A stretch of DNA of 64,000 bases from NCBI GenBank assembly GCA_964475855.1, contig CAYZAV010000001.1, positions 211,987 through 275,986 on the forward strand, given 5' to 3'. Source of the stretch: an uncultured Candidatus Saccharibacteria bacterium. GTDB lineage: Bacteria; Patescibacteriota; Minisyncoccia; Minisyncoccales; Staskawiczbacteraceae. Of this stretch, positions 3,461 through 49,274 are shown piece by piece. Position 1 is the stretch's first letter. Every line of letters starts with the position of its first letter. A program made the translations under genes and the position numbers. The notes beneath the pieces were generated by a model. That model was given only the letters and a program-made list of their open reading frames with translations. It was not told the origin of the DNA and did no database searches.

Positions 3461-4102
3461 ATGCCTATTAATGATTTTGGTAATTGGCTAAATAATAATC
3501 AAGGTGTTCTCTCGGTCATTCTTTTCGTGCTGACAATTATTTTGGCTTGGTTCGCGGGTTTTTTTAAATGGATAAGAAATGAAGTATCAAGAGGAAAAAG
3601 AGCAAGTAAAATCATCTGTGCTTGGAGTTTATTTCCAGATAAAGAAGATAATGAATTTTTTGAATATAAATTTGCTCCGCGATTTCAAAACAAAACAGAT
3701 GAAATTATCAAAGATTTTTGGATAAATTTTGCATCTTCTGGATTTGATCTCACATTAAACCAGACAGCGCAAATTTCTTTATTTGATGGTTGGAATGTAA
3801 GGGGTGATGCCCTACATCTAACATCAAAGGACAGCTATAAGTTTGCCCCTCAAAATTTTCTTGAACCATTTGAAATTGTTATTAAGCTAAGGAAAAAATT
3901 ACCTGAACATGGAGCATGGCTTTATATTTCTTATGGAATTCCAAATTCTAAAAAGATTGAACTAAATTATTGTCTAACATATAAAGAACTAAAGATATTC
4001 GTTGACAGTAGTGAGCATTCAGGGCAGAAGTTTCTTAAATATATGGGAGTAACAACTAATAGCTTTTGGAAAACAAAATTTTTTAGACTATTTTCAAACT
4101 AG
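3461..4102 (+). CDS. N-terminally membrane-anchored protein of unknown function (last gene of the island operon)
   Basis: 213-aa ORF starting 5 nt after the previous stop. One N-terminal TM helix (VLSVILFVLTIILAWFAGFF). No recognisable motif. Confidence 0.6.
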   Translation: MPINDFGNWLNNNQGVLSVILFVLTIILAWFAGFFKWIRNEVSRGKRASKIICAWSLFPDKEDNEFFEYKFAPRFQNKTDEIIKDFWINFASSGFDLTLNQTAQISLFDGWNVRGDALHLTSKDSYKFAPQNFLEPFEIVIKLRKKLPEHGAWLYISYGIPNSKKIELNYCLTYKELKIFVDSSEHSGQKFLKYMGVTTNSFWKTKFFRLFSN

Positions 4103-4343: not shown

Positions 4344-5831
4344 CTACTTTCCATGTTCCCGGATAATCGCCATGAATTGCTGGCCGAATTGGGCCAGTTT
4401 TTGGTTGCCGACGCCGTAGATTTCTAAAAATGCCGTGTCTGTTTTTGGAAAATGCGTGGCCATCTGCACCAATGCTTTGTCGCCAAACACTACATAGGGT
4501 GGGACATGCAGTCGCTGGGCTTCTTGTGTCCTAATCACCCGCAGTTTTTCAAATAATAATTTGTCGTAACTGGTGTCATTGGCGGTGACTACAAATACTG
4601 GCGGCACCGGAATGTAGGTTCCGCTTTTTACGGTTGGCGCTGGCGAAAGTTTTACGCACCGGTCGCAGTTGGCGCAGTTTTGTAGTGCGTAATCTTCATT
4701 GAAATAGTTCAGCAAAAATTTGCGCCGGCAGCTGTATAAATCGCCATATTGCAACACTTTTTCCAAATTTTCGCGTGATTTTTCCCGCTCGTCATCATCG
4801 CGGATATGCTGGAAAAAATATTCTTGCTTAAATTTGTCACCGTAGGAAAAAAACAATACGCAACGGGCGGGAAGCCCATCACGTCCGGCACGGCCTGTTT
4901 CCTGGTAATACCCCTCAATGGATTTTGGCAGGCTGTGGTGGATGACCAGGCGCACGTCGGGCTTATCAATTCCCATGCCAAAAGCGATGGTGGCAACCAT
5001 AATGGAAGCTTGGTCTTTAATAAATTTCTCCTGGTTTTCTCTACGCGTTTTTGCGGGTAGGCCTGCGTGGTAGGCAACTGCGTCAAATCCGCGCCGCTCT
5101 AAATGTTCCACTAATTGCTCCGTATCATTGCGCGAAAAACAATAAATAATAGCGCTTTTATTTTTGTGTTCTGAAAGTAGTGCCACAATGCCCGCCAGCG
5201 AATCTTTTTTGGGTACTACTTCATAACTTAAATTAGGCCGGTTAAAACTGGAAATAAACAGTTCGTGTGCGCCAAGGCCTAGCTGTTTGACGATATCCTG
5301 GCGTACATCTTGCGTGGCTGTGGCGGTCAGCGCAATCAGTGGAATGTTGGGGAATTGCTGTTTAAGTATGGATAAATTGCGATAATCCGGCCGGAAATCG
5401 TGCCCCCACTGGGAAATGCAGTGTGCCTCGTCAATAGCAATGATGTTTATTTTCAGACTATGCAAAAAATCCCAAAATCCCGGCACCGCCAGGCGTTCGG
5501 GGGCAATATATAGTAATTTCAGCCCGCCCGAAGCGGCGCGCTCCATCACGGCCGTAATTTGCTTAGGGGTAAGGGTACTATTGACCAGATCCGCCGCAAT
5601 CCCGTTGGCCGCCAAGGCATCCACTTGGTCTTTCATTAACGAAATAAGGGGAGAAATAACAATGGCTAGACCCGGCAACATTAACGCCGGCAATTGGAAA
5701 CACAGCGATTTTCCACCACCCGTGGGCATCAATACTACGCAATCGCGGCCCAAGGCGACTTGTTGGATGATTTCTTTTTGCAGCGGCCGAAAGGTTTCAT
5801 ACCCGAAATGTTTTTTCAGTAATGTTTCCAT
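4344..5831 (-). CDS. recQ: ATP-dependent DNA helicase RecQ
   Basis: FRPLQKEII, MPTGGGKSLCFQLPA (motif I), DEAHCISQWGHDFRPDY (motif II), C-terminal HRDC-like region. Confidence 0.92.
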   Translation of the reverse strand: METLLKKHFGYETFRPLQKEIIQQVALGRDCVVLMPTGGGKSLCFQLPALMLPGLAIVISPLISLMKDQVDALAANGIAADLVNSTLTPKQITAVMERAASGGLKLLYIAPERLAVPGFWDFLHSLKINIIAIDEAHCISQWGHDFRPDYRNLSILKQQFPNIPLIALTATATQDVRQDIVKQLGLGAHELFISSFNRPNLSYEVVPKKDSLAGIVALLSEHKNKSAIIYCFSRNDTEQLVEHLERRGFDAVAYHAGLPAKTRRENQEKFIKDQASIMVATIAFGMGIDKPDVRLVIHHSLPKSIEGYYQETGRAGRDGLPARCVLFFSYGDKFKQEYFFQHIRDDDEREKSRENLEKVLQYGDLYSCRRKFLLNYFNEDYALQNCANCDRCVKLSPAPTVKSGTYIPVPPVFVVTANDTSYDKLLFEKLRVIRTQEAQRLHVPPYVVFGDKALVQMATHFPKTDTAFLEIYGVGNQKLAQFGQQFMAIIREHGK

Positions 5832-7039: not shown

Positions 7040-7063
7040 CGCGTACCTAGTACAACTTAACAC

Positions 7064-7135
7064 GTCCCCATAGTTCAACGGATAGAATGCGAGCTTGCGG
7101 AGTTCGCGATAGAGGTTCGATTCCTCTTGGGGACA
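7064..7135 (+). tRNA. tRNA-Arg(GCG)
   Basis: Acceptor GTCCCCA/TGGGGAC. Anticodon arm cgagc-TTGCGGA-gttcg. T-arm agagg-TTCGATT-cctct. Confidence 0.8.
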
Positions 7136-7171
7136 CACATAAAATATGCGCAGCGTATTTTTGGTTTCCCC

Positions 7172-7186
7172 GAGGAATCGAACCTC
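7172..7186 (-). repeat. Inverted copy of the tRNA-Arg T-arm (gaggttcgattcctc), tRNA fragment
   Basis: The reverse complement of 7172-7186 equals 7112-7126. No complete cloverleaf could be built around it. Confidence 0.5.
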
Positions 7187-7286
7187 AAAGGGGGTCGGGG
7201 AAAAGTATTTTCCCCGTGTAGGAATATTTCAAAACCGAGGGTTTTGAAGGAGCGAGTCGTCGGACAGCGGTGAGCGACTGGTTTGC

Positions 7287-7305
7287 ATTCCTCTTGGGGG
7301 CACAC
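7287..7305 (+). repeat. Direct partial copy of the tRNA-Arg(GCG) 3' end (attcctcttgggg + cacac)
   Basis: 13 identical nt match 7120-7132, then gcacac versus acacac. The 5' half of the T-stem is missing, so this is a fragment. Confidence 0.55.
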
Positions 7306-7333
7306 TTCGACTTCGTGAAACGAAGGTGAAGTA

Positions 7334-7352
7334 CCCTGAGCTTGTCGAAGGG
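7334..7352 (+). repeat. Dispersed repeat core ccctgagcttgtcgaaggg (intergenic copy)
   Basis: The exact 19-mer is also at 51268-51286 inside infB. Diverged copies lie at 15106-15125 (recG) and, reverse-oriented, about 10992-11010 (nrdA). Confidence 0.8.
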
Positions 7353-7441
7353 CTTTCCTTAAATATTTTCGGAAATTCTTCAATGAGTTCAGGGTCTTCG
7401 TTTCACTCCGCTCAGTGTAAACACACAATCTTTTCTAAGCC

Positions 7442-7513
7442 GCTTCCATAGTTTAATGGATAAAATGCTGGCCTCCGAAGCTGGCGATGCAGGTTCGATT
7501 CCTGCTGGGAGCA
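7442..7513 (+). tRNA. tRNA-Arg(CCG)
   Basis: Acceptor GCTTCCA/TGGGAGC with one G-U pair. Anticodon arm ctggc-CTCCGAA-gctgg. T-arm gcagg-TTCGATT-cctgc. Confidence 0.8.
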
Positions 7514-7797
7514 CACACTGGGAGTTTTCGTCTGAAAACTCCTCAAAAAGGCTTGAAATAGAGCTAATTTCGTCAGTTCGACACTAAAATTTAAAAAAAG
7601 GGGTGGTTTTTATTACAAAAAGCCTTAAACAAGGGTAAGAATATCATCTAACCAATGTGGACTAGGCATGGATTTTTATTTTTTATATTATGATTTAGAT
7701 AGTCATTAATTCAAAGCTATATTAAAATTAAATTGACTTTTCGTGATTCTGTGTTAATCTCAATTTAGCCCATTACCAAGCAAAAAGGAGAAAAACT

Positions 7798-8163
7798 ATG
7801 TCAGAATCTACAAAGCATGAATTATTGGAGATATCAAATGGTTATGAGGGATTGCCCAAAGAGGGAGATTTTGTGGAAAATGGGAAAGAGTATTATTGGA
7901 ATTTTGTCGATACTGTAGTAGGAACTGTAGTCGATAGAGTTGATCGAGGATTTAACTCAGACATGGGCGGATATTATGGATCGAGAGTACATGTAAAAGC
8001 TGTAGAAGAGCAGATGATGCCCAGGGGTAGAGCTGTAAAATGGGAAATTCTTGATGGTCATCAAGAAGCGATGAAGGGCGATCCCAATCCAAACTATGGG
8101 AAGCTAGACAGCGATACGTCCATGCCAAATTATGAGACATATCGCAAGATGTATCGTGAATAA
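7798..8163 (+). CDS. Hypothetical protein (orphan)
   Basis: 121-aa ORF with RBS aaaaggag 7 nt upstream and its own terminator at 8171-8201. Confidence 0.6.
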   Translation: MSESTKHELLEISNGYEGLPKEGDFVENGKEYYWNFVDTVVGTVVDRVDRGFNSDMGGYYGSRVHVKAVEEQMMPRGRAVKWEILDGHQEAMKGDPNPNYGKLDSDTSMPNYETYRKMYRE

Positions 8164-8170
8164 ATCAATA

Positions 8171-8201
8171 AAAGCCCGACCGAAAGGTTTAGGGCTTTTT
8201 T
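8171..8201 (+). terminator. Rho-independent terminator
   Basis: agccc-N14-gggct followed by a T6 run. Confidence 0.6.
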
Positions 8202-8396
8202 CTTGTCTTCAAGTGATTGATTTTTGATGTCCAAAAATTCTATATTGAGACATTAGCCAGCGATTTCTGCAGTAACGGGCTGGATTGGTAATAGTCCCAA
8301 AATTTCGCCAGGTAATTTTTGAAGTTTAATATTTTACCTGTCGTGTGCATATCTTGTAAAAACCCTACTTTTGCGGGGTTTTTTGTTTCTAAATAG

Positions 8397-8405
8397 TTAT
8401 CCACA
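8397..8405 (+). promoter_or_regulatory. Perfect DnaA-box 9-mer TTATCCACA upstream of nrdA
   Basis: Exact consensus 103 nt upstream of the nrdA ATG and about 50 nt upstream of a TTGCAC...TAAAAT promoter-like pair. Confidence 0.45.
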
Positions 8406-8507
8406 GCTTCTCCCATTTTTAGCATTTTCCCTGGATAAAAAACCAATTTGCACGCATAAAATTAAAAGAGTAAAATGACAATTACCAATAAATAAAAAGT
8501 AAAAAAT

Positions 8508-11237
8508 ATGGATCTCACTATCACCAAGCGCGACGGGTCAAAAATACCATTTAATGCCGACAAAATTAACCGGTCCATTGAACGTGCCGCCTTTGGCATG
8601 ATCGATCCTATTGCCAAGGTGACCCAGGTGGCCACCGATACTAAAGTTACCTTATATGATGGCATCACCACCGAAGAGTTGGACATGGCTACTATTAATG
8701 CTTCCGTCCAAAATATCAAAGAAGATATCGATTACGATAAAATTGCCACCCGCCTGCTATTAAAAACGGTCTACAAACACGTGCTGGGCGACTACGAAAG
8801 CCGGCAGGAGCTAGAAATTTTGCACCGGGAACATTTCGCCACCTACATTAAAAACGCCGTGGCAAGCGGCATTATGGACGCACGGATGGAAAAGAATTTT
8901 GATTTGCAGCGTTTGGCGGGGGCACTGGCCATTGACCGCGATGAGTTGTTTATTTATTCAGGCTTAGATGGTCTGCTGCACCGCTATTCGGTAAAAGACA
9001 AAAAACAAAAGCCGTTTGAAACGCCCCAGTACTTTTTCATGCGGGTAGCTATGGGAAATTCTTTTAACGAAAAAGACCCAACCGATCAGGCCATTAAATT
9101 TTACGAAAAAATGAGCCGGCACGAATATTTGGCCGGGGGGTCTACCAACATTAACGCCGGGGCTATCACGCCCGCGCTATCAAATTGTTTTTTGCTGGAA
9201 ATTCATGACGATATGGGGCATATTTCAAAATCCGTCATGGACGTGATGATGCTTAGCAAGGCCAGTGGCGGCATCGGGGCTTCTATTACTAAGCTACGTG
9301 CCACAGGGTCGCCACTTTCTTCAAATAACACAACCAGCAGCGGCCCTACGCCATTTGCCAAAATTATTGATACGGCTATCCGCGCAATCCAAAGGGGAGG
9401 CAAGAAAAAAGGCGCCCTCTGTTTTTACATGGAAAACTGGCACATTGATTTCCCCGATTTTATAGAATGGAAACACAACGCCGGCGATGATTATCTGCGC
9501 ATGCGCACCGCCGACACCGCTGTATTTATTTCCGACGAATTCATGCGTCGAGTTGAGGCAAAACAGGAGTGGTACATGTTTGACCCCAAAGAAACGGGGG
9601 ATTTAAATGAACTCTATGGAAAGGCTTTTTCTGTCCGCTATAAAGAATATTGCGCTATGGCTGAGGAAGGAAAAATGCGGATGTGGAAAAAAGTGCCGGC
9701 CACTGAACAGTATCGTGCCATTTTGGTTGCTATGCAAACCACTTCACATCCGTGGCTGGTGTGGAAAGACCCCATTAATTTGCGGGCGCTTAACAATAAT
9801 ACCGGTACTATTCATATGTCTAACTTGTGCACGGAAATTTGTCTGCCCCAAGATAAAGACAATATTGCGGTGTGCAATTTGGCGTCACTCAATTTAGCCG
9901 CTCATTTGAAGAAAAAGCAGGTTGACTGGCAAAAAATGGAAGAATCGGTACGTTTGGCCGTGCGCCAATTAGATAATTTAATTGATATTAACGTACTGCC
10001 GGTGCCAGAGGCGGAAAAGTCCGACCGCGAAAACCGTGCCATTGGATTGGGGGTAATGGGTTTTTCTGATGCCATTGAACAGCTGGGTATGCCATACGAC
10101 AGTCCTCATGCGTATGATTTTACGGACAAAATTTTTGAATTCATCAGCTACATGGCTATTGATGAAAGTGCTAATTTGGCAGCTGAACGCGGCGCTTACA
10201 AAAATTTCCCGGGTTCAGAATGGTCAAAGGGGCATGTGCCGGTGGACACCATTGCCAAACTGGAAGAAGATCGCGGTATGCAACTTGATGTTGATAAAAA
10301 AAGTAAGCAAAATTGGCTTGACTGGGACACCCTGCGCGCCAAAGTAAAAAACGGCATGCGCAACGCAACCTTGATGGCCGTGGCGCCAAACGCTAATATT
10401 GGTTTAATGGCGGGAACTACTCCCGGCATTGACCCGCGATTTGCCCAAGTGTTCAGCCGCAATAAAATTTCGGGGAAATATTTGGACATTAACCATAATT
10501 TAGTAACCGAATTGAAAAATTTGAATCTGTGGGATATGGTAAAAACCAAAATTATTGAACTGCAAGGCGATATTTCTAGTATCGAAGAAATTCCACCCCA
10601 CATCCGCGCTATTTATAAAACTTCGTTTTCTGTTTCACCGTACGCGTTTATTGAAGTGGCTGCCCGAGCCCAAAAATGGGTTGACCAAGCCCTAAGCCGG
10701 AACATGTATTTGGAAGACCGCGACATTGAAAAAACCATGGATATTTACACCACCGCCTGGAGAAAAGGGGTAAAAAGTACCTATTACTTGCACATGAAGC
10801 CACGGCATACTGCTGAACAAAGCACGGTGGCCGTCAATAAATCGGCGAAGATGGGGAAGATGGGATTTGCTTCCGTGTTTAAGCAAGAGGAGTCAAAAGT
10901 GGCAGAGGTTACAAATGTTGCAGAGGTACTGCAGGAGGCGAGGATTTTAGAAGAAGTTGCCGTAAGCGCACCGGAAACTATGGATGCAAAGCCCTTCGAC
11001 TCCGCTCAAGACAAGCCTGGCATTGGGTTTTCTGCGGTGAGTGTAAATTTACAGTCGGTCGCCGAGATCCCAACCGCCTCCGCCCAAGGCTCCGGCGTGT
11101 CAAGGCAAATTTTTAGCCATGTTCAAACTGAATTACCGAAAAGCCATTATCAAACTAAAGTAGTTGACGGAAAAGTATACAAAGTTCACCTGCCCAGCGA
11201 CCCGATGGAAAACTTTTTGTGTGACGGGTGCCAGTGA
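8508..11237 (+). CDS. nrdA: Class Ia ribonucleoside-diphosphate reductase alpha subunit with ATP-cone and an extended low-complexity C-terminal tail
   Basis: ATP-cone (ITKRDGSKIPFNADKINRSIERA). Active-site region NLCTEI. C-terminal redox pair ...LCDGCQ*. About 100 extra residues precede the tail. Confidence 0.93.
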   Translation: MDLTITKRDGSKIPFNADKINRSIERAAFGMIDPIAKVTQVATDTKVTLYDGITTEELDMATINASVQNIKEDIDYDKIATRLLLKTVYKHVLGDYESRQELEILHREHFATYIKNAVASGIMDARMEKNFDLQRLAGALAIDRDELFIYSGLDGLLHRYSVKDKKQKPFETPQYFFMRVAMGNSFNEKDPTDQAIKFYEKMSRHEYLAGGSTNINAGAITPALSNCFLLEIHDDMGHISKSVMDVMMLSKASGGIGASITKLRATGSPLSSNNTTSSGPTPFAKIIDTAIRAIQRGGKKKGALCFYMENWHIDFPDFIEWKHNAGDDYLRMRTADTAVFISDEFMRRVEAKQEWYMFDPKETGDLNELYGKAFSVRYKEYCAMAEEGKMRMWKKVPATEQYRAILVAMQTTSHPWLVWKDPINLRALNNNTGTIHMSNLCTEICLPQDKDNIAVCNLASLNLAAHLKKKQVDWQKMEESVRLAVRQLDNLIDINVLPVPEAEKSDRENRAIGLGVMGFSDAIEQLGMPYDSPHAYDFTDKIFEFISYMAIDESANLAAERGAYKNFPGSEWSKGHVPVDTIAKLEEDRGMQLDVDKKSKQNWLDWDTLRAKVKNGMRNATLMAVAPNANIGLMAGTTPGIDPRFAQVFSRNKISGKYLDINHNLVTELKNLNLWDMVKTKIIELQGDISSIEEIPPHIRAIYKTSFSVSPYAFIEVAARAQKWVDQALSRNMYLEDRDIEKTMDIYTTAWRKGVKSTYYLHMKPRHTAEQSTVAVNKSAKMGKMGFASVFKQEESKVAEVTNVAEVLQEARILEEVAVSAPETMDAKPFDSAQDKPGIGFSAVSVNLQSVAEIPTASAQGSGVSRQIFSHVQTELPKSHYQTKVVDGKVYKVHLPSDPMENFLCDGCQ

Positions 11238-13109: not shown

Positions 13110-15752
13110 ATGACCTATGATACAGATATGCTTACCTTAGACACTGCAGTTGAAGATGTGCCCAAAATCGGGCCGGCTTACCAGAAAAAATTAAAAAAAC
13201 TGGGCATTAACCATGTTCGGGATTTGTTATATTATTTCCCCCAGCGCTACGATGATTTTTCTAATATTATCCCCATTTCACAAGCCAGGCAGGGTAATGT
13301 GGTTTGTGTGCAAGGCCGCATCATAGCCGTGGAAGCTTCAAAAAGTGTTCGCAAATGGATGAATATTATCACCATCACCATTGAAGACGAAACAGGCACT
13401 ATCAACGCCACGTGGTTTAACCAGCCATATTTGGCGCAGTCATTGAAGCAAGATGATACTGTTTGCTTGGCTGGAAAAGTAAGCCTTAACCAAGATGGAC
13501 TTTTTTTAAACAGTCCGGCGCACGAACGCCTTGGTGAATTTTCGGAAAATGAGGATTTGGTGCACACTGGCCGTATTGTGCCCGTGTATGCCGAAACCAA
13601 GGGGCTGACGAGCCGTTGGCTGCGATATATCATCAAACCTTTGCTTATCCAATTCCACGAAGTGATGCCCGAAAGCTTGCCCGAGGAACTATTGGAAAAA
13701 CATAAATTTTTGCCTATCAATGAAGCCCTTTGGCAGGTGCATTTTCCCGAATCGTTTGAAGCGGCGGATGCGGCCAAGGCCCGGTTTTCATTTGAAGAAT
13801 TACTGGTCATCCAACTTTCCGTATTAAAAGAACGGGCAAAATTATTGCAGCGGCAGGCGCCACAGTGCCCGATAGATGAAAAACTGATGCAAGATTTTGT
13901 GGCCTCACTGCCATTCACACTAACTGATTCGCAAAAGCAATGTGCCTGGCAAATTTTAAAAGACATGGAAAAAACGGCGCCCATGAGCCGATTATTAGAA
14001 GGGGATGTAGGAAGTGGAAAAACAGTAGTGGCCGCCATGGCTGCGCTTTCGGCCATAAAAAATAACCACCAGGTGGCTTTTATGGCACCCACAGAAATTT
14101 TGGCCAAACAGCACTACAAAGGACTACAGAAAATGCTGGAAAAATTCGAAGTAACAGTTGGCCTATTAACCTCAAAAGAACGGTTTTTGGGCGGCAAGGA
14201 AGTTACCAAAAAAACCTTTATTACTGAATTGAAACAGGGGACTATTAATTTGGTAATCGGCACCCACGCCATCATCAGCAAAGGCATTGAGTTTAACAAC
14301 TTGGCATTGGTCGTTTTGGACGAACAGCACCGCTTCGGAGTCAACCAACGCATGGCGTTGGTTAGCAGATCTACGCAGATAAATACGCAGATTGACGCAG
14401 ATGATAACGAAAAAGAATTCCTATATGCCGATCTGACGTATAAAGTTAGGGGGGCTATTTTCGATGTGTATAATACATTGGGTTCTGGGCAAAAAGAGGT
14501 AATTTACCAAAGGGCACTGGAAGAAAAACTCAAAACTGATGGATTAATTTTTGAAAGGGAGAAATTAGTACCTATTAGCTATAACGGTAAAAAAATAGGA
14601 ACATATCAGCCTGATTTTATCATTGAAGATAAAATTATCTTAGAGCTTAAGGCATTGTCATTTATTGGACCAACTGAAAAAAAACAAGCTTGGAGCTACC
14701 TTAAGGGATCTTCATATAAACTTGCATTCTTGGTAAACTTTGGGCCAAAATTGGCTATTGAACGCATCATCTTCGATGTAGCCCGCAATCAGCGTACATC
14801 TGCGTTTCATCAGCGTGAATCTGCGAAAGAGATGAGAGTACCTCATCTCTTGAGTATGACGGCTACGCCTATTCCGCGCACCTTGGCGCTAACTATTTAT
14901 GGCGATTTGGATTTATCGCTGATCAAAGAAATGCCCAAAGACCGTAAACCCATTAAAACCATTATCGTGGAACCAAATGACCGGCAAGTAGCGTATGATT
15001 TTATTGCAAAAGAGGTAAAAGAAGGCAAGGGAGTGTTTGTGATTTGCCCGAAAATTGAAGCTAGGAGTTTGGAGGTGGAAGCTGGAATGACGAACAGCTC
15101 GCGTGCCCTGAGCCGCGTCGAAGGGTTTGTACCCCAAAATTATAGTTTTGGTTTAGATACTACTCAAGTAAAATCGGTGACGGAGGAGTATGAAAAGCTA
15201 TCAAAAGATATTTTTCCGGACTTTAACGTTACTATGATGCACGGACGCATGAAGCCGGCGGAAAAAGAAAAGATTATGGTAGATTTTAAAAACGGTGAAA
15301 TTGATATTTTAATTTCCACATCAGTAGTGGAGGTGGGTGTTGATGTGCCGCGCGCCACGGTAATGATGATAGAAGGGGCGGAGCGCTTTGGTTTGGCGCA
15401 GCTGCACCAGTTCCGCGGCCGGGTGGGGCGCAGTAACATGCAATCGTACTGTTTTTTGTTCACCACTTCGCCGGATCAACTTAATCGCAAACGCCTGAAG
15501 GCATTAGTAGAATCAAATAACGGATTTGAGCTGGCGCAAAAAGATCTGGAAATTCGCGGACCGGGGCAGCTCTACGGCACGGACCAGTGGGGCCTGCCTG
15601 ATATGGCCATGGAGGGGATTTCCAATATTTTCCTGGTTGAAAAAACCCGTGCGGCTGCCAAAGGAATTTTGGAAAAAGATTTGGCGCTAGAAAATTTGCC
15701 TGAACTAAAAGAGCGCGTCAAAAAACTGAAAACAAAGATACACTTTGAGTAG
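13110..15752 (+). CDS. recG: ATP-dependent DNA helicase RecG carrying two in-frame insertions
   Basis: Wedge/OB region. GDVGSGKT (I), DEQHRFGV (II), MTATPIPRTLA (III), QLHQFRGRVGRS (VI). 880 aa; E. coli RecG, from memory, has only about 15 residues between motifs II and III. Confidence 0.9.
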   Translation: MTYDTDMLTLDTAVEDVPKIGPAYQKKLKKLGINHVRDLLYYFPQRYDDFSNIIPISQARQGNVVCVQGRIIAVEASKSVRKWMNIITITIEDETGTINATWFNQPYLAQSLKQDDTVCLAGKVSLNQDGLFLNSPAHERLGEFSENEDLVHTGRIVPVYAETKGLTSRWLRYIIKPLLIQFHEVMPESLPEELLEKHKFLPINEALWQVHFPESFEAADAAKARFSFEELLVIQLSVLKERAKLLQRQAPQCPIDEKLMQDFVASLPFTLTDSQKQCAWQILKDMEKTAPMSRLLEGDVGSGKTVVAAMAALSAIKNNHQVAFMAPTEILAKQHYKGLQKMLEKFEVTVGLLTSKERFLGGKEVTKKTFITELKQGTINLVIGTHAIISKGIEFNNLALVVLDEQHRFGVNQRMALVSRSTQINTQIDADDNEKEFLYADLTYKVRGAIFDVYNTLGSGQKEVIYQRALEEKLKTDGLIFEREKLVPISYNGKKIGTYQPDFIIEDKIILELKALSFIGPTEKKQAWSYLKGSSYKLAFLVNFGPKLAIERIIFDVARNQRTSAFHQRESAKEMRVPHLLSMTATPIPRTLALTIYGDLDLSLIKEMPKDRKPIKTIIVEPNDRQVAYDFIAKEVKEGKGVFVICPKIEARSLEVEAGMTNSSRALSRVEGFVPQNYSFGLDTTQVKSVTEEYEKLSKDIFPDFNVTMMHGRMKPAEKEKIMVDFKNGEIDILISTSVVEVGVDVPRATVMMIEGAERFGLAQLHQFRGRVGRSNMQSYCFLFTTSPDQLNRKRLKALVESNNGFELAQKDLEIRGPGQLYGTDQWGLPDMAMEGISNIFLVEKTRAAAKGILEKDLALENLPELKERVKKLKTKIHFE
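14365..14827 (+). mobile_element. In-frame GxxExxY-family (PD-(D/E)XK-like) module flanked by inverted CGCAGAT/ATCTGCG heptamer clusters, inside recG
   Basis: The insert encodes ...LTYKVRGAIFDVYNTLGSGQKEVIYQRALEEKL...PDFIIEDKIILELKA...FLVNFG..., the full signature of stand-alone GxxExxY proteins. Flanks are 14365-14406 (acgcagat x3) and 14787-14827 (atctgcg/atcagcg x4). Confidence 0.7.
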
Positions 15753-15805: not shown

Positions 15806-17335
15806 CTACTTACGTAGTTTTTCTGTGACCCAAAAGCCCATGTATCTGCCCAGCATCAGTCTGATTTGGGCATCTAAAGCCGGGAATGAACCAAAAATAA
15901 TTAAGATGGCGGGCAAGCAGATCCACTGCAAAAACAGGAATATTTTTTTAAAGTAACTCATGCCTTTTGGCATTGGCGGCAATAGCATGGTACTCAAGGC
16001 GGCCGAAACCAACATGCCAACCAGGGAAATAGTCATAATCCTGCCCGTTAAAATAGGCAGATTAAATGACAAAATGCTGAAGTTAAACTTATCGCCCCCT
16101 AAAAAAATGGGCAGCCAGCCAAGCATAAAGAGCAACAAGGCAGCCGTGGCCCATGACCAATAGCCGTCAATAATAGTGTAAAGATGCGAAACTTTCGGCC
16201 AAAAGCCGATATTTTTGTTGTGCAAAAATCCGAACATGACATAGGGGATTTCCGCACAGCCCCAAGCCCAGCGTTTTTGCTGGCGATATTGGTTTAAGAT
16301 GGTTTTAAACACATTAGTGGAATCCACCACATCCATGGAAACCAGGTAATAAATGGGCACCACTCGGTAATCCCCGTCATAATACAAATAGGCGCGCCAG
16401 AAAATACGCGAATCATCACAGACCACATTGGCCGGGTAACCCACCTCAAAAAATACTTTGCCGGGAATGGCGTGGCTTGAATACGTGGTTAACTTTTCAG
16501 CCCGTTCCTGCTGGATCATCTGCCAAAAGGTATTTGAGGTGGAAACAATCCGGGCAAAAAACGAAGCTTTCCATACATTATTGTTATACACCGGCACCGG
16601 CTGATAACTGGCGCGCAAGGGGTTTTTCTCGGTCAAAAAATACCACGTCAGGCAGGAAAAATATTGGGGATATACCTTGGTATCAATATCAAAACTAGAA
16701 ACCAAAATATCCTCGTGGGGAATATGTAAATTATCTATCAATTTTCGCGCCTCGCTGCCCGCAAAGGCCACGTTTGACCCTTTTCCTGCAATTTCGCCCT
16801 CAGTGTCCGCCGGATGCACCGTCACTAAAAATGCACGGAAAGCACCGGCGTATTCCCTGGCCAATTTTTGCCCGATATGTTCATACTGCTTGCCGGCGCG
16901 GCCCTCCATGGCCAATACCATAATCAATTTTTCTTTGGGATAATCAGTCGCCAACAGCGACTCCAAGCTGTCACGGATGATGGCCTCGCCCTCTTTGTAC
17001 GTAGGCAAAATGACTACGTGGTAAACGTTTTTATAGTTCTTGCCCCGCAATGCTTTCAATTTTTGTAGCCAATCTTCTTTCAAATGTTTCTTAACCCGGT
17101 AGTAACCAATAATCTGATGCAGGGAAAAGTAAAAAATCCGAAACAGATAATAAAAACAAAAACAGATGATAAAAATAGCCACCCATGAAGGCAGTAGCCA
17201 TGAAAAAATAAAGACTCCTACCAGAGTCCCCAAACTTAACGCCCCCGGGAAAATTTCAAACAGTCGGTAAATGAATTTTTGTTTGCCTGACAAATCCCGT
17301 GCATCGGAAATATTAATGTAATCGGATTTGTTCAT
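15806..17335 (-). CDS. Membrane-embedded family-2 glycosyltransferase (processive, cellulose/chitin-synthase-like)
   Basis: N- and C-terminal TM helices. A GT2 core. QQKRWAWG matches the Q(Q/R)xRW motif. ATG at 17335 (TTG at 17338 in the track). Confidence 0.75.
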   Translation of the reverse strand: MNKSDYINISDARDLSGKQKFIYRLFEIFPGALSLGTLVGVFIFSWLLPSWVAIFIICFCFYYLFRIFYFSLHQIIGYYRVKKHLKEDWLQKLKALRGKNYKNVYHVVILPTYKEGEAIIRDSLESLLATDYPKEKLIMVLAMEGRAGKQYEHIGQKLAREYAGAFRAFLVTVHPADTEGEIAGKGSNVAFAGSEARKLIDNLHIPHEDILVSSFDIDTKVYPQYFSCLTWYFLTEKNPLRASYQPVPVYNNNVWKASFFARIVSTSNTFWQMIQQERAEKLTTYSSHAIPGKVFFEVGYPANVVCDDSRIFWRAYLYYDGDYRVVPIYYLVSMDVVDSTNVFKTILNQYRQQKRWAWGCAEIPYVMFGFLHNKNIGFWPKVSHLYTIIDGYWSWATAALLLFMLGWLPIFLGGDKFNFSILSFNLPILTGRIMTISLVGMLVSAALSTMLLPPMPKGMSYFKKIFLFLQWICLPAILIIFGSFPALDAQIRLMLGRYMGFWVTEKLRK

Positions 17336-17582
17336 CAAGGTAATTTTTCAACATCTTTTTAATAGTCCTGAACCCCCAACCACTTTTTAAATATTTTTCC
17401 CTTTTCAAGGCATCCTTCTGGATAATGAAAGCTTCGTAAAATATGAGAGCATATGGACGAAATGGTTTTGTAGAAATATTATCGCCATTATTATGCTCCG
17501 ATAATCTTCTTTTTAAATCCTTAGTACATCCAATATAGAAACTATTGTTCTTTTTGCTTTGGAGTATATAAACGTAATGCAT
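17313..17582 (-). CDS. Small GIY-YIG nuclease family protein
   Basis: MHYVYILQS...SFYIGCTKDLKRRLSEHN (GIY-X-YIG plus R/E motifs). 89 aa. Overlaps the GT2 gene start by 23 nt. Confidence 0.85.
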   Translation of the reverse strand: MHYVYILQSKKNNSFYIGCTKDLKRRLSEHNNGDNISTKPFRPYALIFYEAFIIQKDALKREKYLKSGWGFRTIKKMLKNYLDEQIRLH

Positions 17583-28821: not shown

Positions 28822-29160
28822 TTAGACTCCCGGAAACAGATTTTTGACAAATAATGGGATGGAAACTGCCAATAAGATTACTACCATTCCAACAACTCCC
28901 CAGACGACAAAATTTCGGGCATCTGCCACTTTGCTGGCATCTCCCTGGGCGTTAAAGAATTCAATACCCGCCCTGATAAACATAAAGACGGTGAAGGCGA
29001 CAACTATCGGCCAAAAGAGAAAGCTAAATAACGTGTTAATCAGGCCCTGTACGGTAAATAATACCTGATTGGGTTCGGCAATGGTCGCCAAAGCAAATGC
29101 GGCCATCGGGAAAGCCAATAACATACTAGCCGAAGCTAACGTAATTATTTTTTTATTCAT
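28822..29160 (-). CDS. TrbC/VirB2-like small membrane protein, paralog 5
   Basis: 112 aa. Signal peptide ...AAFA. FFNAQGDASKVADARNFVVWGVVGMVV. Confidence 0.75.
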   Translation of the reverse strand: MNKKIITLASASMLLAFPMAAFALATIAEPNQVLFTVQGLINTLFSFLFWPIVVAFTVFMFIRAGIEFFNAQGDASKVADARNFVVWGVVGMVVILLAVSIPLFVKNLFPGV

Positions 29161-29224
29161 TGAAGATACGTGAAATATTTTGATTTAAGTGACCTTTTGC
29201 TATATCGCATTTTCCCTAAAATAA

Positions 29225-29563
29225 CTAAATACCGTTATTAAGTGTCAAGCGGACGATGAATGGGATAGAGAACGCCAAGAAAGCAACGGCCAATCCGGCA
29301 ATTCCCCACAATACCTGGTTCCTTGCGGTAGCTACCTTGTCTGGGTCTCCTTGGGCATTGAAGAAGGCAACTCCTGCCAAGATAAACATGATGATGGCAA
29401 AAGCAATGAATAGAGGCCACAAAATGTTAAAGAAGATGTCGATTAAGCCATTGATACTAAGAGTTTGCACCACGTTTGGGATGTTTCCTGGAGTAAAGGC
29501 CAAGCTTACCAGTGGCAATGCCAACATGGCAATCGCGGCGGCGGTGATTATTTTTTTGTTCAT
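29225..29563 (-). CDS. TrbC/VirB2-like small membrane protein, paralog 4
   Basis: 112 aa. FFNAQGDPDKVATARNQVLWGIAGLAVA. Confidence 0.75.
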   Translation of the reverse strand: MNKKIITAAAIAMLALPLVSLAFTPGNIPNVVQTLSINGLIDIFFNILWPLFIAFAIIMFILAGVAFFNAQGDPDKVATARNQVLWGIAGLAVAFLAFSIPFIVRLTLNNGI

Positions 29564-29585
29564 GGTATGTTATTTTTTAAGGTAG

Positions 29586-29624
29586 TTTTTATCCAGCGCC
29601 ACTGACCGTGGCGCTGGATAAAAA
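29586..29624. repeat. Perfect GC-rich palindrome between pilin-like paralogs
   Basis: tttttatccagcgccac-tgacc-gtggcgctggataaaaa. In either reading direction the T-run is 5' and the A-run is 3', so it is not oriented as an intrinsic terminator. Confidence 0.6.
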
Positions 29625-29630
29625 GTATTA

Positions 29631-29969
29631 CTAAATACCGTTATTAAGCGTATTGCGTACGATGAATGGGATAGAGAAAGCCAATAGGGCTACTACCATT
29701 CCAACGATTCCCCACAATACCTGGTTCCTTGCTGTGGCAACTTTGTCCGGATCTCCCTGGGCATTGAAGAAAGAAATGCCTGCCAAGATAAACATGATAA
29801 TGGCGAAGGCAATGATAACTGGCCACAAAATGCTAAACAAGATATCGATAAGCTGATTCACCGAAAGGGTGGAAACCGTGTTTGGAATGTTTCCTGGAGT
29901 AAAGGCCAAGCTTACCAGCGGCAGTGCCAACATGGCAACTGAAGCGGCAATGATTATTTTTTTGTTCAT
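29631..29969 (-). CDS. TrbC/VirB2-like small membrane protein, paralog 3
   Basis: 112 aa. FFNAQGDPDKVATARNQVLWGIVGMVVA. The 3' about 80 nt are nearly identical to paralog 2. Confidence 0.75.
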   Translation of the reverse strand: MNKKIIIAASVAMLALPLVSLAFTPGNIPNTVSTLSVNQLIDILFSILWPVIIAFAIIMFILAGISFFNAQGDPDKVATARNQVLWGIVGMVVALLAFSIPFIVRNTLNNGI

Positions 29970-30001
29970 GATATATTTCTGAATTAATTAGCAATCCCCC
30001 A

Positions 30002-30343
30002 TTAAATACCGTTATTAAGCGTATTGCGTACGATGAATGGGATAGAGAAAGCCAATAGGGCTACTACCATTCCAACGATTCCCCAGATGACGGCGTTGCG
30101 GGCTGAAGTAACCTTTTCTGGATCTCCCTGGGCGTTGAAGAACATAAATGCAGCCAAGATAAACATGATAATGGCGAAGGCAATAACTACCGGCCAAATA
30201 ATTGAGAAGATGATGTCGATAAGGTTGTTAATGGAAAGGCCGGGTACTTGGTTTGGAATGTTTCCTGGAGTAAAGGCCAAGCTCACCAAAGGCATAGCCA
30301 ATAATAATGCTGAAGCTGATAATGCGATAATTTTTTTGTTCAT
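30002..30343 (-). CDS. TrbC/VirB2-like small membrane protein, paralog 2
   Basis: 113 aa. FFNAQGDPEKVTSARNAVIWGIVGMVVA. Confidence 0.75.
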   Translation of the reverse strand: MNKKIIALSASALLLAMPLVSLAFTPGNIPNQVPGLSINNLIDIIFSIIWPVVIAFAIIMFILAAFMFFNAQGDPEKVTSARNAVIWGIVGMVVALLAFSIPFIVRNTLNNGI

Positions 30344-30447
30344 AGTTTTTTGTTTAGATTAACGTTAACTATCGACCTTTTATATGTTATGGGTTTACCC
30401 ATAAGTATATATTCATAAAAATACATGCTTATGGGTAAAAATAGGAA

Positions 30448-30912
30448 TTACGAATTGTCACAAGTGCCCACAATAACTGACCCACAGCTACCACTCACAC
30501 AATCAACATCATTAGTACAAGCACCTCCATCAGGCACACTTCCTGGCGCCACACCAATCACTCCCTGAATCACTGCAACCAATCCGGTCCCGGCTAAAGC
30601 AATGGCTAATCCGATAACTCCATACATCACCGCATGTTTGGCTTTTTGGACATTGGAAGGATCCGCCCCGGCAGTGACAAATAAAATGCCGGCCCAGACA
30701 AATAGTAATACCGCCAGCGAGGCAATCAGTCCAACCAGAAAATTGATAATGGTGGTAATGAGCAGGGGAAAACTGTTAATACAGGTGGATCCGGCAGGCA
30801 GAGGATTGGGGCACAGCGGGTTTGGTAAACTGATAGTGGCAGCGGCGGCAATGGTGGACATTCCAAGAAGCACAGTAAAAGATATCAAAAAAATGGCAGC
30901 TTTTTTATCCAT
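30448..30912 (-). CDS. TrbC/VirB2-like small membrane protein, paralog 1, with Cys-rich C-terminal extension
   Basis: 154 aa. FVTAGADPSNVQKAKHAVMYGVIGLAIA. Tail is GGACTNDVDCVSGSCGSVIVGTCDNS. Confidence 0.7.
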   Translation of the reverse strand: MDKKAAIFLISFTVLLGMSTIAAAATISLPNPLCPNPLPAGSTCINSFPLLITTIINFLVGLIASLAVLLFVWAGILFVTAGADPSNVQKAKHAVMYGVIGLAIALAGTGLVAVIQGVIGVAPGSVPDGGACTNDVDCVSGSCGSVIVGTCDNS

Positions 30913-35149: not shown

Positions 35150-36715
35150 TTAGTTAGTGGCCCTATAGGCCTTGTAGTCCTTCCGAAGGACCTTGGTAAC
35201 GAAGACGAGCGGGCCGGTTTCCACGCCCTCGGGGAAGCCGTCGGGATCCAGGCAGCAGCCCATTTCTTTTTCGGGACTCAAGCAGCCCATACGTTCAAGG
35301 AGCGTAACATGCTCCGGATTTTGCACACTGGCAACCCGCAAGCGCCGCTTGGCATCCTTGCCCATGAACCGTTCCACGACCATATCCAGATCATGGAAAT
35401 CGCCCTGGTTGTTGACCAGGAACTTCATCTTGACCTGGTAGGGGCCAAGAATTCGTTCTTGGTGGAACTCTTCGGCACCCAGCATCTGCTGGTTTTCGCA
35501 GGCCAGCACCTGGGCCAAAGCATCGCGGCATTCGTGCCACAGGAATTTCCCGGCCTTCATCCACTCGATGTAAGCAGGAGTGTTCCTTGCGATTTCCTTG
35601 GGGATGGCAACGTGCACATCATAGAGCTCGTTACGCAGCTGACCCTGATTGTTCTTCAGGGTCTTGCGATTGATAGCCACCTTCAAACCGGTGGCACGCT
35701 CGACAGCAACCAGCGCCCTGAAGCCGTTTTCCTGACGGCCAAAAGCACCCATCGCTTCAATGACATCACCATTGCAGGTGATGACCACACCACCTTCGGG
35801 GGTGATCATGTTGAAGATGCCATCTTCGCGATCGTTCCAGAGAAAGATAGCCGGTTGCTTGGGATCTTCCCACAACTTGCGGGCCTGTTCCCGGTCGGCA
35901 TCTTCCAGTTCTTTCTTGAGCCGTTGGACTTGATCCTCCACCGCCCTCTTGATGTTTTGGGTCAAGATGTGGCGATCTTCGTCTTCGAGCTCAACGACAT
36001 CGAAGCGTGCGTTCAGGGAAAAACGATCCTGCTTGCGGGTGGCCGGATCCTGGAAAAAGATCTGGCCGTTTTCACGTTTTTGCAGGACGCTGGACTTCTC
36101 CAATTTCTGGAGTTCCTCCAGCAGCTCGATGCCGTTCTTGAACGGCTTGACCGAGAGCCGAAATGCGGCCTCCGAGGCAATTAGCGGCAACGAAATGGCC
36201 AGACGCTTGTCGTTATGCCAGCGATTAATGTCGCTGCGCCATTCCGCGAGCAATTGGCCGAACGTCTTGTCGATGCCCCAGAGCTCCAGGGCCGATTCTA
36301 CCAGCAAATCCTCACTGATGAGGTTGCCGTCTTCGTCGAGCTGCTCACAGACAGTTTCGATATCATAGAGGTGAGGCAGAATGCTTTTCTGCCGGTCGAT
36401 GATTTTCTGCACCTGCTCACGCTGTCGGCCTTTGGCTTCTTTGTAGGCCTGTTGCTTTTGGTTCAGAGCGGCCTTATCGGCAGCTTTTTTGGCCAGGATC
36501 CTTTCGGCCAGGGCTTTCAATCCGCCAACTTGGACCGTGACGGTCGGAACGACCGGCTCGGGCAATTCGGGGATGATAATGTCCTGGATGTCGGGGGCGG
36601 CTTTCAGATGCAAGCTGCCGTTTTCGACGGCTTGCCCCAGTTTTTTCAGCGCGTTTCCCCGCACATCACTCTGCAGGAGAATTCCGTTCTTTTTGCTGCC
36701 GTTCTTGCTGCTCAT
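35150..36715 (-). CDS. Large orphan protein, no recognisable domain (high-GC island)
   Basis: 521-aa ORF, the longest in the locus, with its own promoter and terminator. The plus-strand 352-aa and 184-aa ORFs are Leu-rich antisense shadows. Confidence 0.7.
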   Translation of the reverse strand: MSSKNGSKKNGILLQSDVRGNALKKLGQAVENGSLHLKAAPDIQDIIIPELPEPVVPTVTVQVGGLKALAERILAKKAADKAALNQKQQAYKEAKGRQREQVQKIIDRQKSILPHLYDIETVCEQLDEDGNLISEDLLVESALELWGIDKTFGQLLAEWRSDINRWHNDKRLAISLPLIASEAAFRLSVKPFKNGIELLEELQKLEKSSVLQKRENGQIFFQDPATRKQDRFSLNARFDVVELEDEDRHILTQNIKRAVEDQVQRLKKELEDADREQARKLWEDPKQPAIFLWNDREDGIFNMITPEGGVVITCNGDVIEAMGAFGRQENGFRALVAVERATGLKVAINRKTLKNNQGQLRNELYDVHVAIPKEIARNTPAYIEWMKAGKFLWHECRDALAQVLACENQQMLGAEEFHQERILGPYQVKMKFLVNNQGDFHDLDMVVERFMGKDAKRRLRVASVQNPEHVTLLERMGCLSPEKEMGCCLDPDGFPEGVETGPLVFVTKVLRKDYKAYRATN

Positions 36716-46492: not shown

Positions 46493-46628
46493 ACTTGAGG
46501 CATACTCTGCCTATCTCAAGCGACAGGAGAAAATTGCCAATTGGTTTTATGGCACCCTAATCGTTGGCTGTTTCTTGGCGATCATTGTCGCAGGTGTTAT
46601 GTGGATCAGGGGACTGATCACGCAGTAG
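46455..46628 (+). CDS. Small single-TM protein (57 aa, below the ORF-track cutoff)
   Basis: AAAGGAGA RBS at 46441. MSQEPINSNPPPELEAYSAYLKRQEKIANWFYGTLIVGCFLAIIVAGVMWIRGLITQ*. Overlaps the preceding gene's end, and a terminator follows. Confidence 0.5.
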   Translation: MSQEPINSNPPPELEAYSAYLKRQEKIANWFYGTLIVGCFLAIIVAGVMWIRGLITQ

Positions 46629-46643
46629 GAAGGAAAAACATCC

Positions 46644-46676
46644 AAAAACAGAGCGAAGCTAGCCACTTCGCTTTTT
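46644..46676 (+). terminator. Rho-independent terminator (copy 1 of a duplicated 33-nt terminator)
   Basis: aaaaacag-agcgaag-ctagcca-cttcgct-tttt. Confidence 0.75.
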
Positions 46677-46726
46677 CTTTGAAAGTAAGCTACACTAACG
46701 CCATAGTCCCAAGAGGAGATTCTACT

Positions 46727-47263
46727 ATGTTTGACCCAAAAAACAGCAAAACCGTGGGCTATCATCTATTCTTCCTTCCCGAAGGAAAACTCTTTGATGG
46801 TCTGCAAAGCACCATCAACGCCCTCGCCGACAAATATGGCAGCGTGAAGTTTGAGCCGCATCTCACTTTACTAGCAAGGATTCCCAAATCCGACGAAGCC
46901 GAACTGATTGCCAAGACCGAGAAACTCGCCAGTACGATGTCGCCGTTTGAAGTTGAACCAAGGGAGGTTTGTGCCGAAGACGCTTACTTTCGTGCCCTGT
47001 ACTGCAAAGCGGAACCTAACCCCACGATGGAAGAATACCATCAGAAAGCACTAGAAGTATTTGGCGTGCAAGATGTGAATGTTTATATGCCTCATCTGAG
47101 CTTGTACTACGGCAATGTCCCGCAATCTACCAAGGACGAAATGATTGCATCGCTTTCACTGTCAGCTAGCATGAAGTTTCTGGTAGATAAGGTTTACCTT
47201 TATCGTACCGAGGGCGAAGCCCAAGACTGGGTACAGGTCGGAGCCTATCCGCTGGGGATGTAA
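46727..47263 (+). CDS. 2H phosphoesterase superfamily protein (cyclic phosphodiesterase / 2'-5' RNA ligase-like)
   Basis: ATG at 46727 with a GAGGAG RBS. Two HxT/S motifs (EPHLTLL and MPHLSLYY). Confidence 0.7.
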   Translation: MFDPKNSKTVGYHLFFLPEGKLFDGLQSTINALADKYGSVKFEPHLTLLARIPKSDEAELIAKTEKLASTMSPFEVEPREVCAEDAYFRALYCKAEPNPTMEEYHQKALEVFGVQDVNVYMPHLSLYYGNVPQSTKDEMIASLSLSASMKFLVDKVYLYRTEGEAQDWVQVGAYPLGM

Positions 47264-47274
47264 ATTCACAAAGC

Positions 47275-47310
47275 AAAAAAACAGAGCGAAGCTAATTACT
47301 TCGCTTTTTT
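47275..47310 (+). terminator. Rho-independent terminator (copy 2 of the duplicated terminator)
   Basis: aaaaaacag-agcgaag-ctaatta-cttcgct-ttttt. About 30/33 identical to 46644-46676. Confidence 0.75.
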
Positions 47311-49202: not shown

Positions 49203-49274
49203 AGGCGCCGGTGGGAATCGCACCCACGTATAAGGGATTTGCAGTCCCTTGCATTACTACTTTGCTACGGCGCC
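49203..49274 (-). tRNA. tRNA-Cys(GCA) with atypical D- and T-loops
   Basis: Reverse complement GGCGCCG TA GCAA AGTAGTA ATGC A aggga-CTGCAAA-tccct tatac gtggg-TGCGATT-cccac CGGCGCC T. Confidence 0.75.

Follow-up and report, generated by a model that had tools for sequence, protein, structure and literature searches.

Known families of short dispersed repeats

The 19-mer repeat analyzed here invites comparison with several kinds of short repeats. Rickettsia palindromic elements (RPEs) were reportedly described by Ogata et al. in 2000. Like the 19-mer repeat, RPEs are palindromic and lie both between genes and in frame in functional, even essential, genes, to whose products they add a surface peptide. 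They differ from it in being about 100–150 bp long and confined to Rickettsia, whereas the 19-mer repeat, which is present in about 20 phyla, has a core of 19–27 nt and makes inserts of 18–39 nt. In sequence, RPEs and the 19-mer repeat were not seen to be similar. RPEs are also summarized in PMC3733652.

REP and REPIN sequences are short imperfect hairpins that occur as singletons, as inverted dimers, among them heterodimers whose two stems differ, and in clusters; some REP copies lie within ORFs, notably those of replication and repair genes, and REPs with the CGTC tag have no associated transposase (PMC3733652). The CGTC-tagged REPs carry a terminal CGTC or TGTC, a stem of 8–9 bp starting with A/T pairs, a loop of 4–5 nt and a CCA tail (PMC3733652). 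Neither that paper nor its supplements contain our motif strings. The 19-mer repeat likewise forms a short imperfect palindrome or hairpin and inverted doublets that fold into a longer one, and it too is found as singletons, heterodimers and clusters and within ORFs. It differs in lacking GTAG or a terminal CGTC tag, in having a conserved loop of 11 nt rather than the 2–5 nt of REPs, and in being common to about 20 phyla, whereas REP sequences are lineage-specific. Compared with the CGTC-tagged REPs in particular, its TGTC or CGTC is found inside the 11 nt loop, its stem is 4–8 bp, and there is no CCA tail.

The small dispersed repeats (SDRs) of cyanobacteria were reportedly presented by Elhai et al. 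in Genome Research in 2008, a study cited in PMC5861425. SDRs look mobile, are 21–27 nt long and in some cases form hairpins; they nest within other repeats, lie inside genes, and their insertion has been inferred from orthologs without them. We know of no SDRs described outside the cyanobacteria. The 19-mer repeat resembles them in size, nesting, tandem forms and insertion inferred from orthologs, a likeness of features only, as the sequences were not compared. A further likeness is to MITEs, which are also non-autonomous, hairpin-forming and dispersed, and the doublet form of the 19-mer repeat resembles an internally deleted element. MITEs, however, are 70–300 bp or longer and have terminal inverted repeats of 15–30 bp and target-site duplications, whereas copies of the 19-mer repeat are similar over only about 20–27 nt and show no identifiable terminal inverted repeat or target-site duplication.

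String and keyword searches of the searchable literature found no paper that names the motif or contains its DNA or peptide strings. To summarize, the repeat shares its behavior with RPEs, REP/REPINs and SDRs, but it departs from known families in defining features that could be tested: it has neither a GTAG nor a terminal CGTC tag, its loop is long and conserved, terminal inverted repeats and a target-site duplication are lacking, it is much shorter than RPEs or MITEs, and phyla have its sequence in common.

Copies in the window

The window, that is, the whole 64 kb stretch of DNA that was analyzed, contains the 19-mer CCCTGAGCTTGTCGAAGGG exactly at 7334–7352 and at 51268–51286, both on the plus strand, as the initial annotation had claimed. 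There is no third site in the window, even with up to three mismatches allowed. Shuffled sequence predicts 0.01 matches to CCCTGAGCTTGTCGAAGGG, and two or more matches were seen in none of 100 shuffles, which upholds the annotation's view that the match is not due to chance. The two variants it had listed were also found, ccctgagccgcgtcgaaggg in recG at 15106–15125 and the reverse-oriented cccttcgactccgctcaag in nrdA at 10992–11010 on the minus strand. Exactly four sites in the window fit the relaxed pattern GAGC-N2-6-GTCGAAGG, namely the two exact copies and those in recG and nrdA; the expectation is 0.00, with none in 100 shuffles. Paralogous genes and tRNA pieces aside, every other dispersed exact repeat in the window is shorter than the 19-mer.

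The host genes, identified by Pfam, are as follows.

49930–51612, minus strand: infB, encoding IF-2 (Pfam GTP_EFTU, IF-2 and EF-G_D2)
13110–15752, plus strand: recG
8508–11237, plus strand: nrdA, class I ribonucleotide reductase large subunit

The peptides quoted for the coding copies are correct: PSTSSGQVS (IF-2 residues 110–118), SRALSRVEGF (RecG) and PFDSAQDKPG (NrdA). Three differing combinations of orientation and frame are used, again as had been stated; five of the six reading frames of the 19-mer core are open.

An alignment of the four copies with 60 nt flanks conserves only about 20 nt, with no conserved sequence beyond, and a longer element around the copies is therefore rejected. 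A covariance model built from the family, R1, found in the 64 kb only the two exact copies (7334, 32.3 bits, E 2e-6; 51268, 34.1 bits, E 7e-7) and the recG variant (14.7 bits, E 0.15). The model's candidate at 35639–35665 was rejected as a different palindrome: the perfect palindrome CCCTGA-TTGTTCT-TCAGGG at 35643–35661, in a coding region, is picked up weakly by R1 (10 bits) and is probably unrelated.

Two other repetitive features of the window were recorded. An 18 nt exact direct repeat, AAAAACAGAGCGAAGCTA, is found at 46644–46661, within the start of a 2H-phosphoesterase/LigT-like ORF (46541–47263), and at 47277–47294, just past the end of that ORF. On the minus strand, 28822–30912 holds four tandem paralogs of 112 or 113 residues and a fifth ORF of 154 residues. 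The paralogs have long identical DNA stretches in common, and all three of the ORFs run, two of the four paralogs and the 154-residue ORF, match Pfam T4SS_pilin.

A covarying stem around a conserved loop

The repeat unit is a covarying stem of 4–5 bp, up to 8 bp, that closes a conserved 11 nt loop, GAGCYTGTCGA. Among instances other than the exact 19-mer in the fetched loci (n = 193), the flanks of the loop GAGCNTGTCGA pair: the four loop-adjacent positions are Watson–Crick in 170, 160, 160 and 154 of the 193, versus 143, 101, 79 and 60 expected. The pairs are of many types, such as GGGCT/AGCCC, GTGGT/ACCAC, GTGCT/AGCAC and ATGCT/AGCAT. At the three inner variable pairs, both sides have changed in 47, 49 and 19 of 100 non-redundant sequences, with 6–8% unpaired. 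The covariation score is 0.507 versus 0.206 in shuffles, none of 500 of which reaches the observed value, and partners that are slid out of register score at most 0.227.

The instances used for covariation were selected by their loop, and hence a separate test free of this ascertainment bias was made on 54 inverted doublets located solely by their outer stem, GTTCG...CGAAC. The partner arms agree with the 19-mer at 78–96% of loop positions, one position being simply Y, and at only 9–17% at the outermost stem positions, where the stem is nonetheless self-complementary. The arms of a doublet thus share a loop but not a stem, which speaks for independent folding of each.

The unit is found in several arrangements: singletons, inverted doublets, tandem arrays with a period of 23–24 nt, nested copies (for example, the 19-mer set between ccctgag and tcgaaggg) and half-unit duplications. 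Recurrent left flanks are TTCG, GTCA, CTCA, CGGT, CCTG and CTTG; GTAG is present in 2 of 133 instances. Stems of up to 8 bp are restricted to certain subfamilies; as a general feature, local pairing that extends the stem of the exact 19-mer was rejected, being no better than with shuffled partners.

Several structured-RNA origins were considered and set aside. Rfam 15 finds only tRNAs in the window, with chance-level matches at 7100–7480, and a known structured RNA family is rejected for want of a match near a gathering score. The Rfam scans give no support to a tRNA, rRNA or ribozyme origin, and a CRISPR-repeat origin was rejected on sequence resemblance alone. Separately, doublets in one fetched locus (L024, 1175–1278 and 6241–6494) score 26–31 bits to the Rfam family AaHKsRNA41, whose gathering score is 97. 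This Aggregatibacter sRNA family may contain a copy of the repeat.

The intergenic copy

The copy at 7334 sits in the spacer between two tRNA-Arg genes, where it forms one arm of an inverted doublet.

7064–7514, plus strand: tRNA-Arg(GCG) (7064–7136), a 305 nt spacer with the doublet and tRNA-derived fragments, and tRNA-Arg(CCG) (7442–7514)
7315–7406, no strand: inverted-doublet hairpin of 92 nt, from the fold and its inverted repeats
7334–7352, plus strand: copy A, the exact 19-mer core and left arm of the doublet, from the exact match and R1
7378–7395, minus strand: copy B, degenerate and inverted, pairing with copy A; reverse complement ACCCTGAACTCATTGAAG, 18 nt, 78% complementary
7397–7420, minus strand: copy C, degenerate and tentative; reverse complement CTGAGCGGAGTGAAACGAAG, with ACTCCGCTCA in common with the nrdA copy, under the covariance-model threshold

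The outer stem of the doublet is 11 bp long, GTGAAACGAAG at 7315–7325 pairing with CTTCGTTTCAC at 7396–7406, and the inner arms are at 7333–7350 and 7378–7395. The segment 7285–7430 folds with a predicted energy of -52.3 kcal/mol (z = -5.7), a stability equaled by none of 200 shuffles. The initial annotation had matched the nrdA copy to an arm at 7410–7420. The two do have ACTCCGCTCA in common, but nothing more, and the inverted partner of the 19-mer is not this arm but the degenerate copy B.

The spacer is identical in contigs from independent assemblies, and contigs of the same strain from other samples show no differences over 761 nt (7040–7800). The spacer also holds pieces of the neighboring tRNA gene. 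The 3′ end of tRNA-Arg(GCG), ATTCCTCTTGGGGACACAC at 7120–7138, recurs 167 nt downstream at 7287–7305 with 18 of 19 positions matching, and an inverted copy of the T-arm of the same tRNA is found between the two, at 7172–7186. The spacer resembles a heap of tRNA pieces and hairpins that may be the scar of an integration or excision.

Copies within genes

The second exact copy lies in the G domain of IF-2.

51268–51286, plus strand: exact 19-mer, antisense to infB; the coding strand encodes PSTSSG, IF-2 residues 110–115
51259–51285, minus strand: infB codons for PSTSSGQVS; a net gain of 18 nt (6 residues) versus orthologs, at the tip of a G-domain β-hairpin

The nearest IF-2 proteins are those of Candidatus Staskawiczbacteria and other Parcubacteria, within the CPR (Patescibacteria). 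Between the invariant segments GGITQHIGAYE and ITFIDTPGH, the IF-2 loop is 7 residues long (VEHNGKK, for example) in 96 of the 120 closest orthologs; in the window it is 13 residues long, VSHPSTSSGQVSK. The ortholog P0001, which is 90% identical, has the short loop without the insert, and the Geobacillus and E. coli IF-2 structures have a 6-residue gap where the insert sits. An AlphaFold2 model made with 62 orthologs places the insert at the turn between strands 103–110 and 117–124 of the G domain; as a β-hairpin turn, the site is predicted by this model to be permissive. The insert-bearing allele is identical in seven contigs from independent assemblies.

On a neighbor-joining tree of the 120 orthologs, inserts of the PSxxSGQ type appear on about 10 branches spread over the tree, and each of these branches has sisters without the insert. 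In the DNA of four insert-bearing orthologs the motif recurs, antisense to the gene and in the frame used in the window. The motif is exact (19 of 19) in the infB of P0013, despite that gene being only 71% identical to the window's infB; it is a C variant in P0076 and a decayed copy in P0029 and P0057. All five sequenced inserts, the window's and these four, have one orientation, one frame and one position. Their shared orientation and frame mean that a single old insertion followed by many losses also fits.

At least three other classes of short insert are found on scattered branches at the same tip: a PPSHKASEGRR type, whose DNA, CCCTCCTTCGCATAAAGCTTCGGAAGGG, is itself a hairpin, an RGIPRQ..DDF type and a TQINAE type. 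They occur in P0031, P0041, P0049, P0058, P0060, P0064, P0083, P0093, P0100, P0120 and P0038, and in the locus L247 (1501–3048). The IF-2 β-hairpin tip is a general hot spot for mini-repeats. It was also seen that in the closest relative (L121) two ORFs with weak LAGLIDADG matches (4464–5477 and 7986–8744), missing from the window, flank infB, and that gene order around infB differs between the two.

The RecG and NrdA copies were compared with L133, a syntenic Staskawiczbacteria contig.

15099–15125, plus strand: recG codons for SRALSRVEG, with the 20 nt variant at 15106–15125; net gain of 24 nt versus L133
10992–11030, plus strand: nrdA codons for PFDSAQDKPGIGF, with the repeat variant at 10992–11010 on the minus strand; net gain of 39 nt versus L133

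RecG of L133 lacks 8 residues exactly at the repeat, and T. maritima RecG lacks the entire 31-residue loop. The peptide ALSRVEG is present in none of 120 CPR RecG orthologs (P0121–P0240), among which the loop that follows CPKIE or CPRIE ranges from 11 to 52 residues. NrdA of L133 lacks 13 residues at the repeat, in a variable C-terminal linker. The added lengths are thus 18 nt (6 residues) in IF-2, 24 nt (8 residues) in RecG and 39 nt (13 residues) in NrdA. Each of the three copies is in frame and free of stops, in a surface loop or linker of an essential protein.

The RecG loop has further features of its own. Other repeat-like peptides are found in it among CPR orthologs (RPTS..SDVP, SLRAG and ASAKATAGK), and in L133 the loop, at about 3560–3600, carries a different palindrome, TTCCCGACGCCCGACGTCGGGGAA. 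Elsewhere in the window's RecG, residues 435–556 (14412–14777) form a complete PDDEXK_3 (GxxExxY-type) nuclease-fold domain, in frame between the helicase lobes, which is absent from RecG of L133.

The initial annotation had read the coding copies as in-frame insertions, a reading that would have fallen had orthologs from unrelated phyla carried the same residues. The reading is supported, as all three coding copies are absent from the closest relatives. In the ortholog alignment that the annotation had called for, the insert residues are missing in relatives, and for IF-2 and RecG they are missing from solved homologs as well: Geobacillus and E. coli IF-2 and T. maritima RecG do not have them. 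We infer that translation of the three copies yields short, flexible additions of 6, 8 and 13 residues, and that these are tolerated rather than functional. If the inserts are translated, the tryptic peptide ESGGITQHIGAYEVSHPSTSSGQVSK and the junction peptides of RecG and NrdA are the expected products.

Distribution among bacteria

The exact 19-mer is found in at least 120 stretches of one-genome-per-species contigs (596 Gb), where about 4 are expected by chance, and in at least 120 stretches of IMG/VR viral contigs. The matches listed from the one-genome-per-species scan come from about 20 phylum-level lineages, taken from record titles, and include cultured isolates. Among these listed matches are Bacteroidota, Cyanobacteria, alpha-, beta- and gamma-Proteobacteria, Actinomycetota, Chloroflexota, Acidobacteriota, Planctomycetota, Nitrospirota, Myxococcota, NC10, Armatimonadota, Eremiobacterota, Binatia, Verrucomicrobiota/Lentisphaerae, Spirochaetota, Campylobacterota, Deferribacteres, Calditrichota, Zixibacteria and several CPR groups. 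The isolates among them include Microbacterium mangrovi, Microlunatus endophyticus, Moraxella caviae, Sphingopyxis, Sphingomonas sp. Root241 and Rathayibacter. The G+C content of the loci listed, from species genomes and IMG/VR together, ranges from 31% to 72%. About 30 of the listed IMG/VR loci belong to one syntenic prophage-like or gene-transfer-agent-like cluster and are thus not independent.

Outside the CPR, the exact 19-mer also lies inside genes, in several frames: in the MetH activation domain, HsdR, the PolX thumb-PHP linker, a Mu transposase and an RRXRR protein. The doublet form, unannotated, is present on plasmids of Moraxella osloensis, Sphingobium, Comamonas and Methylobacter; none was found in 5,426 complete E. 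coli genomes or in 50,697 phage records. The 19-mer family is pan-bacterial and is neither genome- nor lineage-specific.

Turnover and the search for a mobilizer

L133 is 70–82% identical to the window in nucleotide sequence. All of the window copies in the region that it covers are absent from it. It has an exact copy of its own, one base past a tRNA-Glu gene, where the window has a GIY-YIG ORF and no 19-mer. No copy is present in a 12 kb fragment from the closest relative. These comparisons show copies to be gained and lost rapidly, at sites that are not orthologous.

Neither terminal inverted repeats nor target-site duplications could be delimited, as no filled and empty pair of sites is close enough: the nearest relative is just 90% identical in protein, and contigs of one strain from other samples do not differ over the 761 nt compared. 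When the ORFs of 240 loci were clustered all against all, no gene family recurred near the copies in the 120 listed genome loci; nor did one recur among genes bracketed by copies. No RAYT, the Y1 transposase gene that REP/REPIN copies flank, was found near copies, and no neighbor recurs in the 240 listed loci, which are loci and not whole genomes.

The window has two YhbQ-like GIY-YIG ORFs on the minus strand, at about 17300–17582 (Pfam E 3e-18) and at 49259–49556, each adjoining a tRNA gene; the former is the one that occupies the spot of the L133 19-mer. In a locus from Candidatus Eremiobacterota (L187, 1480–2700), copies bracket a GIY-YIG ORF and also the AlkB-like gene upstream of it.

Proposed explanation and its rivals

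We propose, with a probability of roughly 0.6, that the 19-mer is the core of a selfish hairpin repeat of the REP or RPE kind, copies of which survive in permissive loops when they are in frame and free of stops. New copies would arise at new genomic places, as comparison with relatives shows them to do. The likely route, which is inferred, would be recognition of a hairpin in single-stranded DNA by a trans-acting protein, as yet unidentified. In a gene-dense CPR genome, a copy would then persist only where it is harmless, either in a spacer between tRNA genes or in the surface loops and linkers of proteins. Within a gene, survival is inferred to need an added length that is a multiple of three and a stop-free frame, selection purging the other copies. 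The hairpin-repeat proposal is favored by the statistics and covariation that mark a real hairpin family, by its dispersal and turnover, by the in-frame insertions, by copies inside genes of other phyla, by the permissive site in IF-2, by the identical alleles of independent assemblies, by the recurrent PSxxSGQ-type inserts in IF-2 and by the 19 of 19 motif in P0013. Several points weigh against it. No mobilizing enzyme was found near or between copies, and neither terminal inverted repeats nor target-site duplications could be delimited; REP families are normally species- or genus-specific, and a RAYT-type system would not predict one and the same 19-mer in about 20 phyla; the uniform orientation and frame of the five IF-2 inserts is also compatible with one old insertion and many later losses; and translation of the inserts is inferred only.

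Selection rather than mobility might instead keep the loop identical, if a conserved host factor reads it as a signal in RNA or single-stranded DNA, for example as a processing or stability hairpin or as the site of a replication or repair protein. The coding copies would then be by-products. We hold this to be unlikely, though it deserves to be kept in mind: the loop is conserved and the stem covaries, the motif spans about 20 phyla and 31–72% G+C, two CPR copies abut tRNA genes, and the intergenic doublet is far more stable than shuffles. A signal of this kind is hard to reconcile with copies at non-orthologous positions in relatives or with copies within unrelated genes and in both orientations relative to transcription, and the presence of both orientations with respect to host genes argues against a general role in mRNA. 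Nor does any Rfam family match, and absence from E. coli means that there is no universal requirement. Less probable again is that there has been no transposition at all, each coding insert being single and ancient, lost repeatedly by hairpin slippage and homogenized by gene conversion. The agreement of the sequenced IF-2 inserts in orientation, frame and position is what such a history predicts, partial duplications and tandem forms are suggestive of slippage, and two lineages have kept a 19 of 19 core despite 29% divergence of the gene. However, it requires the insert to have been lost precisely and independently about ten times in the IF-2 tree and leaves unexplained both the new copies at non-orthologous sites and the spread across phyla; gene conversion across a 19 nt tract would itself be unusual.

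A more specific proposal, that the small YhbQ-like GIY-YIG nuclease genes carry the repeat as their ends or mobilize it in the manner of a REPtron, appears very doubtful. In L187 the GIY-YIG ORF has three forward copies before it and three or four reverse copies after it, a GIY-YIG ORF stands in the window where L133 has its 19-mer, and of the 9 motif copies found across 80 loci that were selected solely by the protein, 8 are no more than 1 kb from the gene. Yet 73 of these 80 loci are without any copy, in no locus does a copy come within 100 nt of the gene, both GIY-YIG ORFs of the window are 1.7–2.2 kb from any copy, and E. coli, whose yhbQ is a homolog of these small genes, does not have the doublet form. 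Finally, chance, low complexity, ancestral protein sequence and an assembly or contamination artefact have nothing but the shortness of the match to recommend them. They can be practically dismissed in view of the shuffle statistics, the lack of the insert residues in orthologs, the identical alleles across independent assemblies, and the presence of the motif in isolate genomes and finished plasmids.

The hairpin-repeat proposal may be carried further, in a form that we offer as a conjecture and would not bet on. The repeat could be an undescribed, nearly pan-bacterial "nano-element" whose 11 nt hairpin loop serves a single, widely conserved protein or process as its recognition site. It would spread within and between phyla and routinely add short peptides to core proteins in their surface loops, alongside at least two or three other repeat classes of the same CPR loops, and would thus be a general source of indels in essential genes of streamlined bacteria.

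Significance

Short palindromic repeats within genes are known mainly from a few genera, examples being some REPs and the RPEs of Rickettsia. The 19-mer described here is found in about 20 phyla and inside IF-2, RecG, NrdA, MetH, HsdR and PolX. If the proposal is true, part of the lineage-specific loop insertions in CPR proteins, which confuse annotation, would be explained, because hypothetical proteins with LSLSKG, PELVEG, PFDKLR, LRQAQG or PSTSSG would be translations of the repeat. Cultivable carriers exist (Moraxella osloensis, Sphingopyxis and Microbacterium), so the proposal can be tested experimentally. If one conserved factor recognizes the loop, it would offer a tractable route to a widespread, unnamed DNA parasite or signal.
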